From IMG/VR virus record IMGVR_UViG_3300021962_000022: a stretch of 64,000 nt of DNA; one strand, 5' to 3'. Source of the DNA: a virus. Its lineage: Duplodnaviria; Caudoviricetes. This document shows positions 3,943 through 61,416 of this stretch, piece by piece; positions within the stretch are counted from its first letter, which is position 1, and each line of letters starts with the position of its first letter. The notes under the pieces were generated by a model, which was given only the letters and a program-made list of their open reading frames with translations, was not told the DNA's origin and did no database searches. A program made the position numbers and the translations under genes.

Positions 3943-5313
3943 TTAAAGTCCTACCATGCTATCCACACAATCTTCAACACATTCAATTATATCGTAATTT
4001 GGTTTAATATCAACCAAATAATGATGTCTTACCCTTACGTAGTTTAATGGTTCTTGATAATATTGGACTCTTTTAAAATTAAAACAAGAGGTACCCATAT
4101 TATGAATTCCACCTGAATATTGAGTACCACCAGCCCATGATTGTATAAATGGTTGGTCACCTCTAGTTGATGGTATAACTTCTTCCCATCCTTTTAATTT
4201 ATAGATTGTTCTGCCGTTTAAATAAATTTTTAAAGTACCCAATCTTCTATTTCTTTCTAACGCCCATTTCTTATTTAATTCTTCCGCAGTTGTATAAATA
4301 GTTGTTTGTGTTGATGTTACTGCGGTGATAACAGTATCGGTATATGGAATAGTTTTTATTCCCGGTATTAAATCATTCCACCCACCATCATTTTCTAAAT
4401 TACAATCCGTATAATACTTATCTCGTTCAAAAGTAATTGTAACATTAAAATCTTTTGACGTACCACTAACACATAATACGGGTGTTTGACCCGATGAAGT
4501 ATAATATGATTCTGTATAACCACTATCGGTCACACAAACACCTGAATATCTAATTGCTCTCCATTGTATTCTACCATCATTTGTGAATGAAAATGATAGA
4601 TTATTATCTGCGTAATTTGATATTGAACTCTCATTTCTAACACCTAAATAATAAATCGTCCTTCCACTTGTCCAATTAGAACCATCTTTATTAAGTACCA
4701 AATCAATTGTCCAACCTTTTTCATTTCTTCTCTGTACTTTGTAAGAACAATTATCAGTTCCAGCACCATGATTTATTTGATATGCCCATGGTTTTGCGGT
4801 TGGAATTGGGTCTTGAGGACAACAATTATCACTGATAATTTCTGTGACACAAGGATATTTGGCACCAATCCCATTAAAATTTGCAACATTTAGAGAATTT
4901 GGATTGGATGCGGGGTCATTATAAATGTTCGCATTATGAACAAAATAATGTTTATAACCACTTCCATCGATGTATTCATAAACATCATTCTCTAAAATTA
5001 AATCTGAATTTTGTAGTTGGGTTGTAAATCCACTATAAGGTAAAACCCAAGACCAACCTGAAAATAATGAACCTGTTATATAAGAGGTTAAATTCACTTC
5101 AAGTAGGGATATAGTATCCCTTACACAATCAGTTCCGGTCATACCTGTTGTGTTAATAGTCAATCCTGTATATGATATACTATTATCCAAATCCAAAACC
5201 AAACTATCATAATCTAATTCAGTTTTAGAAATTTCGTAATCGTAATATTCCGAAGAATCGAGTTGTAAATCTAATTTACTCCCCCAAAATTTAAGTATGT
5301 TTTGACTATTCAT
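3943..5313 (-). CDS. Putative virion protein with concanavalin/LamG-like beta-sandwich
   Basis: 456 aa; GTLKIYLNGR and QSWAGG..F..VQYYQEPL resemble LamG folds; TATTTATA upstream. Confidence 0.55.
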   Translation of the reverse strand: MNSQNILKFWGSKLDLQLDSSEYYDYEISKTELDYDSLVLDLDNSISYTGLTINTTGMTGTDCVRDTISLLEVNLTSYITGSLFSGWSWVLPYSGFTTQLQNSDLILENDVYEYIDGSGYKHYFVHNANIYNDPASNPNSLNVANFNGIGAKYPCVTEIISDNCCPQDPIPTAKPWAYQINHGAGTDNCSYKVQRRNEKGWTIDLVLNKDGSNWTSGRTIYYLGVRNESSISNYADNNLSFSFTNDGRIQWRAIRYSGVCVTDSGYTESYYTSSGQTPVLCVSGTSKDFNVTITFERDKYYTDCNLENDGGWNDLIPGIKTIPYTDTVITAVTSTQTTIYTTAEELNKKWALERNRRLGTLKIYLNGRTIYKLKGWEEVIPSTRGDQPFIQSWAGGTQYSGGIHNMGTSCFNFKRVQYYQEPLNYVRVRHHYLVDIKPNYDIIECVEDCVDSMVGL

Positions 5314-8164: not shown

Positions 8165-8743
8165 ATGGAAAAAACAGGAACAGGGGTACTATCACAAAAC
8201 GATTTGATGCAAAGATTAGTACAAGCGAAAAAAATTTTAAATAAAGTAGAAAATGGTGATTACGAAAGAGGTAATGTAAATGAAGATATATTAAGGACTA
8301 ACCCTGAAGACCTCATGTCGACCGAAAATTCCGCACCAATAAGACAACCACAACAACCCAATTTTCAAAAAATACAAGAGTCTAAATTACCTGAAGCAAT
8401 TAAAAGAGCAATGATTGAAAATCCCATACCTCAAATTAGTTTATCGGATTCATTGGATTTAAATTTTGTTGAAAAAACAAAAAAATTAATGGAGAACGAA
8501 GGTGTGTCAACTAAAAAATCGTCACCACAAAAAGGTTCTTCAGTTGATAGTTCAGATTTAGTAAAACAATTAACCCCCATAATTGAAAACATTGTAAGAA
8601 AGACTGTTGTTGAAATTTTGGACAAGAAGTTAAATCAAATATTAACCGCACAACAAACCATGTCCATCAACGAGAACTTGGTTTTAAAAGTGGGTGACTC
8701 CGTTTTTAAAGGAAAAATTACGGGTGTAAATAAATCAAAGTAA
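8165..8743 (+). CDS. Hypothetical protein
   Basis: 192-aa ORF. Confidence 0.7.
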   Translation: MEKTGTGVLSQNDLMQRLVQAKKILNKVENGDYERGNVNEDILRTNPEDLMSTENSAPIRQPQQPNFQKIQESKLPEAIKRAMIENPIPQISLSDSLDLNFVEKTKKLMENEGVSTKKSSPQKGSSVDSSDLVKQLTPIIENIVRKTVVEILDKKLNQILTAQQTMSINENLVLKVGDSVFKGKITGVNKSK

Positions 8744-8796
8744 GTTTGACTTTTCGAATTTTTTTCTTATACTTTATAAAAAAGGAAAGAATTTGA

Positions 8797-10017
8797 ATGT
8801 CAAAGATTAGAATTTTAGCAATACCACCCGATACCCATGGTGTAGGTAAATATAGAATATTAGACCCATATAAATTTATTGGAGACCATTACTCAGATGA
8901 GTTCCATATTGATATCGCACTATCAGTTGAGAACAATGATAATTTCTTTAAGAACTATGACATCGTTGTTTTCCATAGTTTTATCCATCAAACAAGCCAC
9001 GAAGAAAATATTTCAAGAATTAAATGGTTAAAATCCCAAGGGATTAAGACCGTTATGGATATTGATGACCACTGGTCTCCTGACCATAGACACCCAATGT
9101 ATTTTCATATCAAAGAAAATGAATTGCCAAAAAAGAAGGTGGACATGATGAAGGAATCAGACTATGTTACATGTACCACTGAACATTTTGCGAACGGACT
9201 TAGAAAAAAACTTAATTTAAAAAATGTTTTGGTATTTCCAAACGCAATTGACCCAAATGAAAGTCAATTCCAACCAAAACCAACACAATCTGATAGACTT
9301 AGATTCGGATGGTTAGGTGGTTCAACACACTTACATGATTTAGAACAAATTAGAGGTGGTATCTCAATGATTGCAAATCAATATGATAACGTACAATTCG
9401 TTCTTTGTGGTTATGATTTAAGAGGTTCAATCACTGAAGTAAATCCACAAACCAACGAAAGAAAAACAAGACCAATCCAACCAATGGAAACGGTTTGGTA
9501 CAAATACGAACAAATTTTCACTGATAACTATAAAACTGTTGATGGAGACTATAAATCATATTTAATGAATTTCTCACCAACACCTGAAATTGACGTTAGT
9601 GATAAAAAATATAGAAGGGTATGGACTCAACCAATTGGTAGATATGGTGCAAATTATAATTTATTTGACGTATCTTTAGCACCCGTGATACCTTCAGAAT
9701 TCAATTCATATAAATCACAATTGAAAATAATCGAATCTGGTTTTCACAAAAAACCAATCATTGCTAGTGAAACGATGCCATATACCATTGATTTAAAAAA
9801 CGCTTATAAAGAGGGTAAATTACTGGATGATGGTAATGCTTTATTAGTACATGAAAATAAAAATCATAAACTTTGGGCAAAATACATGAAATTACTTATT
9901 GAAAACCCAAATATGGTTGAAGATTTAGGTAATAAACTCTATGAAACCGTAAAAGACAAATATTCTTTAGTTACGGTATCTAAAAACAGAACAGAATTTT
10001 TCAAATCAATAATTTAA
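8797..10017 (+). CDS. Glycosyltransferase, GT-B fold (GT4-like)
   Basis: DIDDHW, FPNAID, FGWLGGSTH, DVSLAP..FN.YKSQLKIIESG motifs. Confidence 0.8.
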   Translation: MSKIRILAIPPDTHGVGKYRILDPYKFIGDHYSDEFHIDIALSVENNDNFFKNYDIVVFHSFIHQTSHEENISRIKWLKSQGIKTVMDIDDHWSPDHRHPMYFHIKENELPKKKVDMMKESDYVTCTTEHFANGLRKKLNLKNVLVFPNAIDPNESQFQPKPTQSDRLRFGWLGGSTHLHDLEQIRGGISMIANQYDNVQFVLCGYDLRGSITEVNPQTNERKTRPIQPMETVWYKYEQIFTDNYKTVDGDYKSYLMNFSPTPEIDVSDKKYRRVWTQPIGRYGANYNLFDVSLAPVIPSEFNSYKSQLKIIESGFHKKPIIASETMPYTIDLKNAYKEGKLLDDGNALLVHENKNHKLWAKYMKLLIENPNMVEDLGNKLYETVKDKYSLVTVSKNRTEFFKSII

Positions 10018-47782: not shown

Positions 47783-49696
47783 TTAAACTTTAATGAATTG
47801 TTTAGTTAATTGTTTATTATAATTATTTAATACTAAATAATAATTACCTGCTGCGGATGATGTCATATCAATTTGCTTATATGCAATTTTTTCTGATGAA
47901 TTGGTTGAAACAGAACCGATGTTTTTAACCAATTGACCTCTCACGTCATAAATTGAACCAATCATCTCCATATTTGGATTTGGGAACCTAATTTCAATTT
48001 CAAACCAACCACTTGTCGGGTTTGGTCTAATTGATGCTGTGATTTCATCAATTGATTGGTCTGTAGGTGGGGCCATTTTGTACATAATAACCGCAATACT
48101 ACTAACCAAATCAATGTTTAAATGGTCTCCTCTTTCATCTGACGCATCCATCAACTCTCTGACATAGATATTACTTACGATGTCATTATTACCAATTGGT
48201 GAGAATTTTAATTTAAATGGGGTTGCTTGACCAATCAAACCATTTTTGAATTGGTTATTCATACCACCAAATCTAATTGTACCATTGGTTGCGTCGTGAG
48301 TTACATATTGTAACCATGGACCCCCATTAAAATTTGATACAATCTCTTCAAATTTAACTTTAGTTTTATCGTACTTCATTTCAAATTGTAATCCATAATT
48401 GTTATCACCATTTGTGTTAACATTAAATGGTACATATATTGGTTGACTTCCTGTTGCAGAAGTGTTAGGTATCTCAACATCTAATTTACCTTTGAATACC
48501 GCTTTAGCAACTAATACACCTGATGAGTTCCATACTCTTGATGAATATGTTCTATCTACGTCACCCTGAATAAAGTATTTAATGTTTACCGTTTTATTCA
48601 CTAAACCAACACTATCCGTGATAAAATTGGTTGCGGTTAAATGGTTTGGCCAATCGTTCCATTGGGTTGAACCTAAAACTAAAGAGTCGTAAACACTCGC
48701 GTGGAAAGTTCTAATCATTGTTGTAGTATCTATTTTTTTCATACCACTTACGTTAGCGTAAATTAGATATGGGTCACCACCGTCTAATTTTCCGTTTTGG
48801 TTCATATCACCAATAAGGTACGCTAAACCATTTTTTAAATATTGTTGACCAAATCCTTGGTTAACATCTGTAATAGTATATTCATCGTAAGTCTTAACCG
48901 CGTCTGATATTGTAACAGCATAATCCCTAAAGACTTCCATACTGTCAGCGGGGAATCTCACCAATAATTTATATTTGGTGTTTTTGTCTACGTTGTTTAG
49001 TGAATAGTTACCCGCGGTATCACATAAAGACGATGAAACAAAAGTACCTGTATTAAACTTTGTACATATAACTGTTGGTCTTCTACCAGCCAATTTCATT
49101 GTTGGTGGTAATTCAACAACGCCACTAATCACCAAGTTACCTAAAAGTTCAAGGTGCATATCTTGTACATTCAAGATTGCGATGTTATCACCAATTGTAG
49201 AACCGTCATATTTGAACATTCTAGCCCAGTTAATTTCAACGCTATCGGCGTCAAAGTTTGATTCGACATCATTAATAATAAATTTGTTATGTATTAAAAA
49301 TGTGTCTTGTGTTATTTGAGAACCACTTGAAAGAACCAAGAAATTTCTCGCTACGGTGTAGTTAGTATCACTCGTATATGAATACAAACCTGTACCCGAA
49401 CTATAACTTGAGTATTTGTAATTGCTAAAGAATTTTATCGAAAGAGCCGGAGTCATAGTACTCACAGTTGGGTCAACAGTAGTTGATACGTGAGTGAAAA
49501 GTTGTTTTCTATACTGAAAATCAACTTGGAATGTTCTTACGTCAACCGCAGATGCTGGTGTGTATTTAAACACAACATCTAAAGTGTCACCTCTTTTGAT
49601 AGTTTTATACGCAACGGGATTACCTATTTGAGGTGTTTGTGAAAACGCCATTGTCGTGAGAAATAATGTAATTAGGAAAAGTGTTATTTTTTTCAT
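47783..49696 (-). CDS. T9SS cargo protein with cohesin-like and dockerin-like domains
   Basis: Signal peptide; GLQFEMKYDKTKVKF (cohesin-like); GDMNQNGKLDGGD (dockerin-like); C-terminal IRPNPTSG..IYDVRGQLV..GNYYLVL..TKQFIKV = type A T9SS CTD. Confidence 0.85.
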   Translation of the reverse strand: MKKITLFLITLFLTTMAFSQTPQIGNPVAYKTIKRGDTLDVVFKYTPASAVDVRTFQVDFQYRKQLFTHVSTTVDPTVSTMTPALSIKFFSNYKYSSYSSGTGLYSYTSDTNYTVARNFLVLSSGSQITQDTFLIHNKFIINDVESNFDADSVEINWARMFKYDGSTIGDNIAILNVQDMHLELLGNLVISGVVELPPTMKLAGRRPTVICTKFNTGTFVSSSLCDTAGNYSLNNVDKNTKYKLLVRFPADSMEVFRDYAVTISDAVKTYDEYTITDVNQGFGQQYLKNGLAYLIGDMNQNGKLDGGDPYLIYANVSGMKKIDTTTMIRTFHASVYDSLVLGSTQWNDWPNHLTATNFITDSVGLVNKTVNIKYFIQGDVDRTYSSRVWNSSGVLVAKAVFKGKLDVEIPNTSATGSQPIYVPFNVNTNGDNNYGLQFEMKYDKTKVKFEEIVSNFNGGPWLQYVTHDATNGTIRFGGMNNQFKNGLIGQATPFKLKFSPIGNNDIVSNIYVRELMDASDERGDHLNIDLVSSIAVIMYKMAPPTDQSIDEITASIRPNPTSGWFEIEIRFPNPNMEMIGSIYDVRGQLVKNIGSVSTNSSEKIAYKQIDMTSSAAGNYYLVLNNYNKQLTKQFIKV

Positions 49697-52234: not shown

Positions 52235-52308
52235 TGCGGGGTGGACTGGAGAGGTTCCAGCTCAGTCTCATAAGCTGAATGACGTGGGTTCGATTCCCAC
52301 CCCCGCAA
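52235..52308 (+). tRNA. tRNA-Met(CAT), initiator-like 5' end
   Basis: TCAGT-CT CAT AA-GCTGA; starts TGCGGGGTGG but lacks the three G:C anticodon-stem pairs. Confidence 0.85.
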
Positions 52309-52388
52309 CTTTTTCATTGAATATTTTGAAATATGAAATTTCATGTTTATATTTTAATTGTTCGTTTGTTCTTTGAAATAAAAATATG

Positions 52389-52471
52389 GGTATAACTAGG
52401 GTCGAGCCAGATTTTGCCACGGTTATATCAAGGGTTGGAAGGACCAGAGCTGGCCGTGACTACTCCAACCC
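52389..52471 (+). ncRNA. Unassigned structured RNA B (two hairpins with complementary loops)
   Basis: GGTATAAC/GTTATATC and GGGTTGGA/TCCAACCC; loop segments GCCAG/CTGGC and GGTC/GACT; boxA-like site at 52367-79 upstream. Confidence 0.55.
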
Positions 52472-52477
52472 ACTATC

Positions 52478-52551
52478 GCCTCCTTAGCTCAGTTGGCCAG
52501 AGCGCCTCACTTGTAATGAGGATGTCGTTGGTTCGAATCCGACAGGAGGCT
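52478..52551 (+). tRNA. tRNA-Thr(TGT)
   Basis: CCTCA-CT TGT AA-TGAGG. Confidence 0.95.
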
Positions 52552-52560
52552 CTGCAGGGT

Positions 52561-52646
52561 TTTCGGTGTAAAGGGTGTCACAACCTACCTGAGCAAAACC
52601 TAACACATGTCCACTATGTGTTAGGGTAATGTGGATAAAACCGAAA
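52561..52646 (+). ncRNA. Unassigned structured RNA C (pseudoknot)
   Basis: TTTCGGT/ACCGAAA closing stem; CCTAACACAT/ATGTGTTAGG with loop GTCCAC pairing to GTGGAT at 52631-36. Confidence 0.55.
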
Positions 52647-52648
52647 TT

Positions 52649-52720
52649 GGTCTCATAGTTAAACGGCTATAATGCAGCCCTGTCACGGCTGAGTTCGGGG
52701 TTCGATTCCCCGTGGGACCG
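52649..52720 (+). tRNA. tRNA-Asp(GTC)
   Basis: CAGCC-CT GTC AC-GGCTG. Confidence 0.95.
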
Positions 52721-52721
52721 C

Positions 52722-53005
52722 AATGGGTAAGAGATACTCAGGAAGATTGGCTACATTCTTTAAAAAAGTAGTGGTGGTAAAAAAATCCTCGACCTTAATG
52801 AGGTATCGATTCGGATAAAACGGTAGCAAGACTCTGCACCGCCGACGTATAGAGTTGACAGGTTTTTATGTGGTAAGACACTAATGAGAAAGGCCCAATG
52901 ATGGAGGACACTTTTAAGCAATATGTTCAGAGAGCGTTGGGGGATATGGTTCTCGAAACAGTGAGAGAAACCCGTTAAAATCTACTTATTGTAATCTCAG
53001 ATAAG
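52722..53005 (+). ncRNA. Unassigned ~285-nt multi-helix RNA D
   Basis: AATGGGT/ACCCGTT long-range pair; CCCAAT/GTTGGG crossing GAGAGC/GTTCTC; several local hairpins; no ORF in the track. Confidence 0.5.
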
Positions 53006-53011
53006 GAAATT

Positions 53012-53097
53012 GGAGAGTTGGCAGAGCTGGTTGAACGCGGCGGTCTTGAAAACCGTTTTATCGAAAGGTAACGGGGGTTCGAATCCCTCACTCTCCG
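53012..53097 (+). tRNA. tRNA-Ser(TGA)
   Basis: GCGGT-CT TGA AA-ACCGT; long variable arm. Confidence 0.95.
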
Positions 53098-53105
53098 CAA
53101 ATTAT

Positions 53106-53180
53106 GGCCCTTTCGTCTATCGGTTAGGACAGGTCCCTTTCACGGACCAGAGACGGGTTCGATTCCCGTAGGGGCTACCA
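53106..53180 (+). tRNA. tRNA-Glu(TTC), CCA encoded
   Basis: GGTCC-CT TTC AC-GGACC. Confidence 0.95.
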
Positions 53181-53194
53181 AACAAAAAACCAAT

Positions 53195-53437
53195 ATGTTA
53201 GAGAAAATTTTAGAACAATACGAAGGTGAAGAAATCTTAATCGCGGATGGATTTGATAATGCTGTTATAGGTATTGACGAATCTTCAATGAGATTAATTT
53301 ATTCTGTTGAAAAGTGTATAGAAATCCTTATGAAACAAGGAATGGATATGACTGAAGCCGTTGAATACTTTGATTTTAATGTGTCAGGTTCATATGTTGG
53401 GGAGAAGACACCAATATGGTGTGACGATTTATTTTAA
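53195..53437 (+). CDS. Small acidic hypothetical protein
   Basis: 80 aa; ADGFDNAVIG..RLIYS..EAVEYFDFNV.GSYVGEKTP. Confidence 0.75.
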   Translation: MLEKILEQYEGEEILIADGFDNAVIGIDESSMRLIYSVEKCIEILMKQGMDMTEAVEYFDFNVSGSYVGEKTPIWCDDLF

Positions 53438-54097: not shown

Positions 54098-54300
54098 AAG
54101 AAACATCCTTACAGAAGGTGATAATGCTTCACTGAAAGGACTACTGACTTCCAAGTGGGTCGCAACCACAATCGGAAGGTACGACACGGCTCAGTAGACT
54201 CTGTAATGGACCCTGATCTATGGTGCACACATAACAGGTGATGGGGAACAAACCATCGGTAAAATCTAAACCTACGGTGAGCGTAGAAGGATTGTTTCTT
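54098..54300 (+). ncRNA. Unassigned ~200-nt multi-helix RNA E
   Basis: AAGAAACA-TCCT/AGGA-T-TGTTTCTT ends; TACAGA/TCTGTA; CTACTGA/TCAGTAG; CTTCC/GGAAG; CCTG/CAGG; GATGG/CCATC; CTACG/CGTAG. Confidence 0.65.
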
Positions 54301-56612: not shown

Positions 56613-57074
56613 ATGACAAAATTTAGAACATTGTACGGAACACCCATAACTGACGTTATTGGTTACATCAAAGATTATTTGGTGGATAAAACTGATGTTG
56701 AGATATTAATTGGTTCGGATTCACAATCATTTAGTAATTCAAAAACGGTTTATGGAGTGGTTATTGCACTTTACACAACAGGTAAGGGTGCACACGTATT
56801 ATGTACTAAAGACGTTACACCATTTGAAAAAGATACATCAAGTAGATTAATGACCGAAGTTTGGAAAGCTGTTGAAGTTGCTGAACATTTGAGAAATAAT
56901 GGTTTACCAAAAGCCACATGGATTGATATAGACTTAAATCCTGACCCAAGATATAAATCAAACAAAGTTTTAAGACAAGCGGTTGGTTTGGTTGAGGGTA
57001 TGGGATACAAGGTAAGATACAAACACGCAGGTGCTATGGTGACTTACAGTGCAAACCATTTGGTAAGAATTTAA
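56613..57074 (+). CDS. RNase H-like protein, YkuK/DUF458 family
   Basis: ILIGSDSQ, GKGA, RLMTEV..AVEVA, IDIDLN..KSN, C-terminal A.H. Confidence 0.75.
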   Translation: MTKFRTLYGTPITDVIGYIKDYLVDKTDVEILIGSDSQSFSNSKTVYGVVIALYTTGKGAHVLCTKDVTPFEKDTSSRLMTEVWKAVEVAEHLRNNGLPKATWIDIDLNPDPRYKSNKVLRQAVGLVEGMGYKVRYKHAGAMVTYSANHLVRI

Positions 57075-60272: not shown

Positions 60273-60992
60273 ATGAGAATAGTTTGTATATCCGATACCC
60301 ACTCTTTGCATCCGTATATGTCACATGACATACCGAATGGTGATATATTAATACATTCTGGTGATTGTACAAATATTGGTGAAGAAAATGATGTTCGTGA
60401 GTTTATTACTTGGTTCCAAAATATTCAGGGATTTAGTCATAAAATTTTTATTGCGGGAAATCATGATTTTGCATTTGAAAGAGAACCTTCATGGTTAAAT
60501 CTCTACATTGACCCAAATATTTTAACAGAACACAATGTAACATATTTGGAAGACGGTGAATTAGAGATTGTAAGTTCCGAATTTTCGAGACCGATAAAAA
60601 TATACGGTAGTCCATGGCAACCTGAATTTTATGATTGGGCATTTAACTTACCGAGAAATGGTGAGGTTTTAGCATCAAGATGGGCGGACATACCTGATAA
60701 TACAGATATCTTAATCACCCATGGACCTCCACACGGTATTAGAGACTTTACTCCCACAAATTTACAAGTGGGATGTGAGTTACTGAGAAGTAGGGTTTTT
60801 GAAATAAGACCGTTATTACATGTTTTTGGACATATACACGGTGCTTATGGTGGTGTTGAGGTAGACGGTATCACTTTCGCAAACGCATCAATTTGTACTG
60901 AAAGATATAAACCAACTAATAAACCATTAGTTTTTGATTTAACAGAAAATAATGGTAATTTTACAATTACATACGTAGACGAAGAAAATTAA
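60273..60992 (+). CDS. Calcineurin-like metallophosphoesterase
   Basis: ISDTH, HSGD, IAGNHD, THGPP, VFGHIH. Confidence 0.93.
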   Translation: MRIVCISDTHSLHPYMSHDIPNGDILIHSGDCTNIGEENDVREFITWFQNIQGFSHKIFIAGNHDFAFEREPSWLNLYIDPNILTEHNVTYLEDGELEIVSSEFSRPIKIYGSPWQPEFYDWAFNLPRNGEVLASRWADIPDNTDILITHGPPHGIRDFTPTNLQVGCELLRSRVFEIRPLLHVFGHIHGAYGGVEVDGITFANASICTERYKPTNKPLVFDLTENNGNFTITYVDEEN

Positions 60993-61019: not shown

Positions 61020-61416
61020 GGGGGTGTATGGAATTGATTGGCATTGATATTCTAAATGGGCACGTAGTCGGACTTCATCTACGACTTAAATCTACGGTGG
61101 AAAAATTCAAACGGCAACGTTTACAACAACATGGAAGTAGCAGGTCTTCTTGCAACTTCTAAAGTTGCTGCCTAATCGGTAGTAACTAACGGGTCGATGG
61201 ACACATAACCTTGGAACAGAAGTCCTTACAGTGTAATACCACTTAGAGTGTTAGGAGAATGGCCTGATTGTCTCTTTAAATTATAGTCAGGAACAGGTTT
61301 GTTGTTTTTCTGTATATGAAATCAAATATTTGTTGGTTGTGAATAACCAAATAAACGTGTAGTCCATTTATGGTATGATGAGCAAGACGCGGGTTCGAAA
61401 CCCGCCACCTCCACCA
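61020..61416 (+). ncRNA. ssrA: tmRNA
   Basis: Acceptor GGGGGTG/CACCTCC with G3:U70 and ACCA end, T arm GCGGG-TTCGAAA-CCCGC, internal tag frame 61113-61175 (GNVYNNMEVAGLLATSKVAA*); TATCTTTG box at 60994-61001. Confidence 0.93.

Follow-up and report, generated by a model that had tools for sequence, protein, structure and literature searches.

The whole spacer between the tRNA-Asp and tRNA-Ser(UGA) genes, positions 52722–53011 (+) of the 64,000-nt stretch of phage DNA analysed here (the window), is a single non-coding RNA gene of 290 nt that belongs to a large uncatalogued family residing in the tRNA arrays of uncultured freshwater phages. From 5′ to 3′ the RNA comprises a terminal hairpin (H1), three H-type pseudoknots in tandem, a UUGAC word, the hairpins HF and HG, and a second terminal hairpin (Hlast), and the two terminal loops hardly vary across the family. 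Taking the analysis together, we consider it fairly probable that the RNA acts in trans as a stable scaffold and offers its invariant loops to a partner from translation or tRNA metabolism. A first-pass annotation of the window had placed a structured RNA in this gap at 52722–53005. A full-length match to a covariance model of the family (R1) and strong covariation over the homologues bear out the placement and its start, whereas the true end lies six nucleotides further on, at 53011, abutting tRNA-Ser(UGA) at 53012.

The upstream neighbour of the RNA is tRNA-Asp(GUC) at 52649–52721 (+; ARAGORN, with an Rfam tRNA score of 61 bits), which does not encode its CCA end, and the downstream neighbour is tRNA-Ser(UGA) at 53012–53098 (+; ARAGORN). 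The spacer contains no ORF of at least 60 codons (60 aa) and is, as the first-pass annotation had noticed, the largest such stretch of the array; its G+C content is 0.42–0.44, compared with ~0.30 in the adjacent coding DNA. The record to which the window belongs is a 115.8-kb fragment of an uncultured IMG/VR phage with an estimated completeness of 38%, and it carries 25 tRNA genes in two blocks as well as a tmRNA. Within this 25-tRNA array, the RNA is located downstream of 11 tRNAs, and in near relatives it also lies deep inside the array. Model R1 identifies the window copy as the sole copy in the 115.8-kb record, and no paralogues of the RNA were found in the window or in the whole record. 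The phage host is probably a member of the Bacteroidota, since a neighbouring gene encodes a type IX secretion (T9SS) sorting domain (Pfam Por_Secre_tail, 47783–49696 (−)) and one member of the RNA family lies on a Bacteroidia MAG contig. Other occupants of the region of stable-RNA genes include an RNaseH_like PF04308 protein (56613–57074 (+)) and a calcineurin-like phosphoesterase (60273–60992 (+)), as well as the phage tmRNA at 61020–61416 (+), which scores 90.5 bits across the full Rfam model.

Loci of relatives were first retrieved via two small proteins encoded in the array. The gap between tRNA-Asp and tRNA-Ser(UGA) measures ~200–290 nt in most related arrays where the two genes are adjacent, and many other tRNAs in those arrays are only 3–7 nt apart. 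When aligned, these gaps share a near-invariant 5′ end, AAUGAGUAAGAGAUACUCA, and a 3′ end in which CUACUCAC, GUAAUCUCA and GGUGGGGAAA follow each other at intervals, and their interior is variable with many compensatory hairpins. The 5′ word is present in at least 119 IMG/VR contigs, nearly all of them genuine members, and searching with the 3′ word and with variants of the 5′ word brought further members. Built from ~210-nt homologues, R1 recovers 91 full-length members in the first set of loci, and 53 full-length and three end-truncated members in the second. Over both sets the family amounts to at least 135 distinct sequences, usually 209–215 nt in length, and spans well over a hundred related phages. 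The window sequence 52722–53012 aligns with R1 over positions 1–212 of 212 (102.2 bits, E 3e-33), and thus contains the ~210-nt family form together with a clade-specific insert. A scan of prokaryote genomes with the 5′ word returned seven matches. One of them (L265), on a short, tRNA-rich contig of a Bacteroidia MAG, is a true but truncated member, and the others are weak or chance matches. Matches to the 3′ word outside the family fall in protein-coding DNA, and therefore no other RNA class sharing the Hlast hairpin was found by that scan.

None of the 4,227 families of Rfam 15 matches inside the spacer at the gathering score, or at E ≤ 10 when 52300–53200 is searched, and a typical ~210-nt member (L009) likewise has no Rfam match at E ≤ 10. 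With the window copy and a typical member as queries, blastn against 50,697 GenBank phage records, including T4, returned matches to the flanking tRNAs only, and full-text literature searches found no published description of the family. The earlier suggestion that the gap encodes a new kind of structured RNA close to phage tRNAs is therefore upheld, the RNA being conserved, covarying and matched by none of the Rfam families.

All family helices can form in the window copy and were mapped to window coordinates. H1 (52725–52739 (+)) pairs GGGUA 52725–29 with UACUC 52735–39 and closes the loop AGAGA 52730–34. Pseudoknot 1 (52742–52772 (+)) consists of stem 1, 52742–46 with 52757–61, and stem 2, in which 52750–54 within the loop of stem 1 pairs with 52768–72. 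Pseudoknot 2 follows directly (52773–52803 (+)), with stem 1 formed by GGU 52773–75 and ACC 52792–94 and stem 2 by CCUC 52787–90 and GAGG 52800–03. Pseudoknot 3 (52812–52856 (+)) combines two nested helices identified by covariation, CGG 52812–14 with CCG 52842–44 and CGGU 52821–24 with ACCG 52838–41, and a crossing stem between GACUCU 52830–35 and AGAGUU 52851–56; it also holds a conserved C-rich strand and the word AGUAG. On the 3′ side of pseudoknot 3 lies the UUGAC word (52855–52859 (+)), where, in the model-based alignment, U and G are at least 97% conserved and the other positions at least 75%. HF (52870–52881 (+)) pairs GUG with CAC around the loop GUAAGA, which across the family reads GUAAGA or GAUG/GACG, and HG is in the family a U/A-rich hairpin with the strands GGUUUU and AAAACC. 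Finally, Hlast (52985–53005 (+)) pairs CUUAU 52985–89 with AUAAG 53001–05 and closes the loop UGUAAUCUCAG, whose core AUCUC occupies 52994–98. This core is present in 130 of the 135 distinct sequences, within a near-invariant family loop, GUAAUCUCA. Thus, crossing helices exist, as the first-pass annotation had proposed, but they are the three H-type pseudoknots within 52742–52856, which were missing from the helices that it listed.

The fold is carried by covariation among the homologues. In the model-based alignments, 91.6%, 89.8% and 90.8% of the cells assigned to pairs hold standard pairs, compared with 72–74% after shuffling, and compensatory changes are seen in 28 of the 33 nested pairs (~17–19 when shuffled). 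The covariation score reaches 0.41–0.45, a value attained by none of 500 shuffles, and drops to 0.13–0.14 in shuffled alignments and to at most 0.114 when the partners are slid by 1–3 columns. The crossing stems were scored in two ways, namely by pseudoknot brackets on an alignment that had not been fitted to them, and by comparing cognate with swapped partners. In the swap test, the cognate partner gives a longer helix than the partners taken from other members for each of five stems (0/300 permutations each), four of them in pseudoknots 1 and 2 and the fifth being the one that crosses in pseudoknot 3, and two control pairs of regions show no signal. Stem 2 of pseudoknot 1 is paired in 96% of cases with 5/5 pairs compensatory, and stem 1 in 92% with 4/5; in pseudoknot 2, all five pairs of stem 2 are compensatory in the alignment not fitted to the stem, and at least two of the three pairs of stem 1 are so in each alignment, with 3/3 in A2 and A4. 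The crossing stem of pseudoknot 3 recurs as GGUUCA/UGAACU in L099 and as GGUUCU/AGAGCU in L195.

The smaller hairpins covary as well. The HF stem pairs interchange between GC, UA, AU and CG, and the Hlast stem reads CUCAC/GUGGG in most members, CUUAU/AUAAG in the window, GUUAC/GUAAU in L248 and ACUCUC/GAGGGU in L169. H1 is invariant in the first set, which was gathered by the H1 word itself; in members gathered without the exact 5′ word (for example L276, L307, L334 and L310), 4/5 of its pairs are compensatory. The abundant G·U pairs are compatible with the + strand only. The nested minimum free energy (MFE) is uninformative for a pseudoknotted RNA, the z scores relative to shuffles being −0.14 (window copy) and −1.59 (L009). 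The evidence for structure comes from the homologues, and tests on the single sequence (MFE, Rfam, blastn) would have failed the finding.

RNAalifold, run on a MAFFT alignment, proposed that the 5′ UGAGUA forms a long-range helix with a second UACUCA close to the 3′ end. This helix was rejected as a conserved pairing because compensation falls within H1 and within Hlast: changes in the 5′ strand of L276, L307, L334 and L310 are compensated in the local H1 partner and leave the distal copy unchanged, and changes in the distal UACUCA are compensated in the 3′ strand of Hlast. In L179, a 40-nt mini form (4139–4180) has H1 fused to the loop and 3′ strand of Hlast with the pseudoknot body gone, as a deletion between the two copies of UACUCA would produce, and can be drawn as a small H-type pseudoknot of GAGUA/UACUC plus GAGA/UCUC.

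The GAGA of the H1 loop and the UCUC of the Hlast loop are mutually complementary, and the variation within both loops is compatible with their pairing. Across the 135 sequences, variation in the H1 loop consists almost exclusively of A-to-G substitutions facing the two U's, seen in 27 sequences; the sole other change affects the first loop base, outside GAGA, and G to A opposite the C's does not occur. Within UCUC, the sole substitution replaces C by U, opposite G. A GAGA/UCUC change compensated on both sides is not found in the 135 sequences, and contact between the two loops, whether intra- or intermolecular, is therefore put forward here as a hypothesis. The pseudoknots may form a rigid rod with one terminal loop at either end, such that copies of the RNA could join head-to-tail through GAGA and UCUC into an RNA-only ring, filament or cage. 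Such an assembly, which we regard as improbable, would be a miniature counterpart of those formed by ROOL and GOLLD, with a 210-nt unit.

The additional length of the window copy is explained by an extra, ~60-nt branched domain between HF and HG, which is shared by the window clade (L002, L082, L014, L084, L143, L166 and L171) and absent from the ~210-nt members. The closing helix UAAUG 52882–86/CGUUA 52973–77 (52882–52977 (+)) encloses both the insert and the equivalent of HG, and an identical UAAUG...CGUUA pairing closes the short HG hairpin in members of the L247 type. The insert itself (52894–52941 (+)) is formed by the helix CCCAAU 52894–99/GUUGGG 52936–41 and an inner, variable hairpin, GGACA 52906–10/UGUUC 52924–28, which reads GGAUG/UGUCC in L082. 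The equivalent of HG (52948–52972 (+)), GGUUCUC 52948–54 paired with GAG(A)AACC 52965–72 with A52968 bulged, aligns with the GGUUUU/AAAACC of the family and is kept in all insert-bearing relatives.

Most of the helices and motifs from which the first-pass annotation had assembled a group I-like P3/P7 core fall in this region. Of these, the CCCAAU/GUUGGG helix is genuine and covaries in four diverged relatives, for example as CCCAU/AUGGG (L084), CCUAUC/GAUAGG (L166) and CUCGC/GUGGG (L014), with L143 being the fourth. By contrast, the proposed crossing partner, GAGAGC 52930–35 with GUUCUC 52949–54, is not conserved, since GAGAGC lies in a variable stretch and is absent from L084, L166, L143, L171 and L014, and GGUUCUC has its conserved local partner in GAG(A)AACC. 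A proposed long-range pairing of the 5′ end, AAUGGGU with ACCCGUU 52970–76, fares no better: the 5′ end is a family motif, over 100 members carry it and lack ACCCGUU, and the nearest relatives, L002 and L082, have AAUGAGU, which leaves an uncompensated A·C. The words that had been likened to the R and J8/7 motifs lie within the insert, and most family members lack them. With neither the 5′-end pairing nor GAGAGC/GUUCUC conserved, and with the region of both proposed core helices confined to one clade, the group I reading fails. Taken together, the observations of the first-pass annotation are partly confirmed and its interpretation partly supported.

Two short frames within the spacer raise the possibility of tiny protein genes, one at 52723–52818 (31 aa) and one at 52898–52978 (26 aa, with GAAAGG upstream). 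Both are open in the window and in the nearest relatives, and the AUG at 52723 is kept in 84 of 91 members. The first frame varies from 6 to 60 codons across the members, has indels that are not multiples of three and shares nothing beyond MSKRYS, which is encoded by the RNA motif; the second lies mostly in the insert lacking from most members and is lost or shifted in relatives, in L143 by an indel of 2 nt and in L166 and L171 by other changes. As, moreover, the substitutions track base pairing rather than codons, we consider protein coding extremely improbable.

The RNA is tied to tRNA genes throughout the family. The first set of 91 loci contains 949 tRNAs, every one of them encoded on the strand of the RNA, and the median is nine tRNAs per family locus. 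Of the 91 members, 45 begin 0–1 nt after an upstream tRNA and 55 lie within 2 nt of a downstream tRNA. The species of the flanking tRNAs vary widely among phages and the place of the RNA among them differs freely. Co-transcription of the RNA with the tRNAs is suggested because it shares the strand of all neighbouring tRNAs and is often 0–2 nt from them. Given the established knowledge of tRNA processing by RNase P and the tRNA 3′-end endonuclease, the 3′ end would be released by RNase P cleavage at the 5′ end of tRNA-Ser and the 5′ end set by the endonuclease cutting behind the CCA-less tRNA-Asp, after which the two terminal hairpins may protect the ends of the RNA. On one of its two sides, about a quarter of the members lack any tRNA over a distance of 400 nt, and release by tRNA enzymes is therefore not the whole story for those.

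Parts of the RNA are contained in metatranscriptome contigs from four libraries, although the data, being contigs, do not allow ends, strand or level to be read. Contigs of run X16 cover 52722–53091, where one contig passes from unrelated sequence to homology exactly at 52722, and those of run X15 cover 52864–52986; some runs have no contig over the ORF at 53195–53437 or over parts of the RNA, gaps that carry no evidential weight. The X16 contig starting at 52722 fits a discrete module, which is weak evidence because DNA carry-over into the RNA libraries is not excluded.

Could the RNA be a ribozyme, whether built on a reduced core of the group I type or cleaving itself so as to trim the adjacent tRNA? 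The smallest group I introns borne by tRNA genes are comparable in size to the present RNA, which likewise lies among tRNA genes and has crossing helices, and the self-cleaving HDV-like theta ribozymes of gut phages trim a neighbouring tRNA. Multiple pseudoknots with invariant unpaired nucleotides would suit a catalytic RNA, and the 45 members that start 0–1 nt behind a tRNA would suit a trimming activity. However, many members have no upstream tRNA to trim, and the ribozyme families of Rfam 15 yield no match at E ≤ 10, including group I (RF00028), RNase P RNA (RF00010, RF00011, RF00373 and RF02357, searched with both the window copy and L009) and the HDV-like ribozymes. The architecture is a string of H-type knots, rather than the nested double knot of HDV-like ribozymes or the P3–P9 core of group I introns, and the element at the 5′ end is a simple 5-bp hairpin. 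The pairing proposed as P7-like is not conserved, nor is there a conserved core of the P3–P7 type, and there are no flanking exons; since the flanks are a complete tRNA-Asp and a complete tRNA-Ser, no gene is interrupted. A ribozyme is thus very unlikely.

The same tRNA context bears on whether the RNA works as a free molecule at all. If it served the tRNA operon in cis, it would either promote polymerase read-through of the structure-rich array, as the HK022 put RNAs and the EAR element help RNA polymerase to do, or guide or shield processing of the polycistronic precursor, and no free RNA would be needed. This would account for its strict co-orientation with the tRNAs, its often exact abutment and its single copy in the window, as well as for the 25 of 91 members that have no tRNA within 400 nt upstream, several of which directly precede a tRNA in the manner of a leader. 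The protein neighbours are also not recurrent, with the best cluster present in 22 of 127 loci, and thus offer no candidate protein partner; a recurrent RNA neighbour is likewise not found, as adjoining spacers form only small clusters. In addition, L230 has the 5′ hairpin AAUGAGUAAGAGAUACUCA on its own (8203–8227), between tRNA-Thr and tRNA-Leu(UAA), followed after the latter tRNA by a different structured stretch. The 5′ hairpin may therefore be a separable module, and its solitary occurrence would also fit a cis-acting processing or transcription signal, which counts against a role in trans. Yet the window copy and those of near relatives lie deep in the array, in the window after 11 tRNAs, rather than at its head, the position among the tRNAs varies freely between phages, and three covarying pseudoknots with invariant loops far exceed the needs of known processing signals. 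On balance, we consider a cis-acting role unlikely.

We therefore favour the trans-acting scaffold, in which a rigid row of pseudoknots would display the invariant single-stranded words AGAGA, AGUAG, UUGAC, GUAAGA and AAUCUC during infection, for recognition by a partner (protein or RNA) from the translation or tRNA machinery. Such an RNA could be a counterpart of T4 RNAC and RNAD and of GOLLD and ROOL. RNAC and RNAD (species 1 and 2) are small non-tRNA RNAs within a phage tRNA cluster, where they are transcribed (PMC3014915). The present RNA is similarly encoded in, and co-oriented with, a phage tRNA cluster, but is longer, contains three pseudoknots and has no blastn similarity to them, the comparison being one of sequence and not of fold. 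GOLLD (RF01998) and ROOL (RF03087) are pseudoknot-rich RNAs of phages and prophages that have no known protein partner (PMC12286853; PMC5737381) and are found near phage tRNA islands (PMC12286853). The RNA described here shares with them the phage setting, the proximity to tRNA genes and the richness in pseudoknots, but GOLLD and ROOL are 580–800 nt or longer, compared with ~210 nt, and neither Rfam model matches at E ≤ 10. Self-assembly into cages has been shown for GOLLD and ROOL.

Rows of H-type pseudoknots beside a tRNA or tRNA-like element also occur as PK2–PK4 of tmRNA and in the upstream pseudoknot domain of the tobamovirus 3′ end, and the likeness is one of architecture only. The present RNA lacks a tRNA-like domain, a tag frame and an end that could be aminoacylated; ARAGORN reports no tmRNA at its position, and the only Rfam tmRNA match in the window is the one at 61020–61416.

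A scaffold with exposed loops could also be directed at the host, as a decoy or antidote against its defences, either as a sponge for a tRNA nuclease or as a mimic of a ToxI-like type III antitoxin. The RNA travels with tRNA genes in large phages, its invariant exposed loops could serve as bait, and pseudoknotted antitoxin RNAs and phage mimics of them are known precedents (PMC4627078, PMC5772629). Against this, no hairpin has the geometry of an anticodon arm (5-bp stem, 7-nt loop), the three pseudoknots are not sequence repeats, unlike those of ToxI, and defence-related or toxin genes do not recur nearby. A decoy function hence appears improbable.

The non-tRNA passengers of large-phage tRNA arrays, such as RNAC, RNAD, GOLLD and ROOL, have gone unexplained for decades. 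The family joins them as a compact representative, whose fold is well resolved, which offers over 130 natural variants and whose invariant loops are sharply delimited. Its size of 210 nt suits chemical probing, crystallography, cryo-EM and pull-downs, and thus makes it a more tractable entry to the structured RNAs linked to phage tRNAs than the ornate RNAs of 600–800 nt. The family is also a ready candidate for a new Rfam entry.

Another orphan RNA motif from freshwater metagenomes, freshwater-1 (RF02979), occurs in the same tRNA arrays. It is a 62-nt motif that neither overlaps nor resembles 52722–53011, and in the window it matches ~1.2 kb downstream, at 54202–54264 (+), in the gap between tRNA-Leu(UAA) and tRNA-Arg(UCU). 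With 71.6 bits (E 5e-17), this match was missed by the default scan because it falls just under the gathering score of 72; a syntenic freshwater-1 in L009 (6720–6781) scores 84.7 bits. Among the related phages, an ORF for an HNH-type endonuclease is inserted between the RNA and tRNA-Ser in L097 (~8330–8835), and the array of L103 contains a tRNA with the anticodon CUA, of the amber suppressor type, as called by ARAGORN, which hints at stop-codon recoding in that relative.
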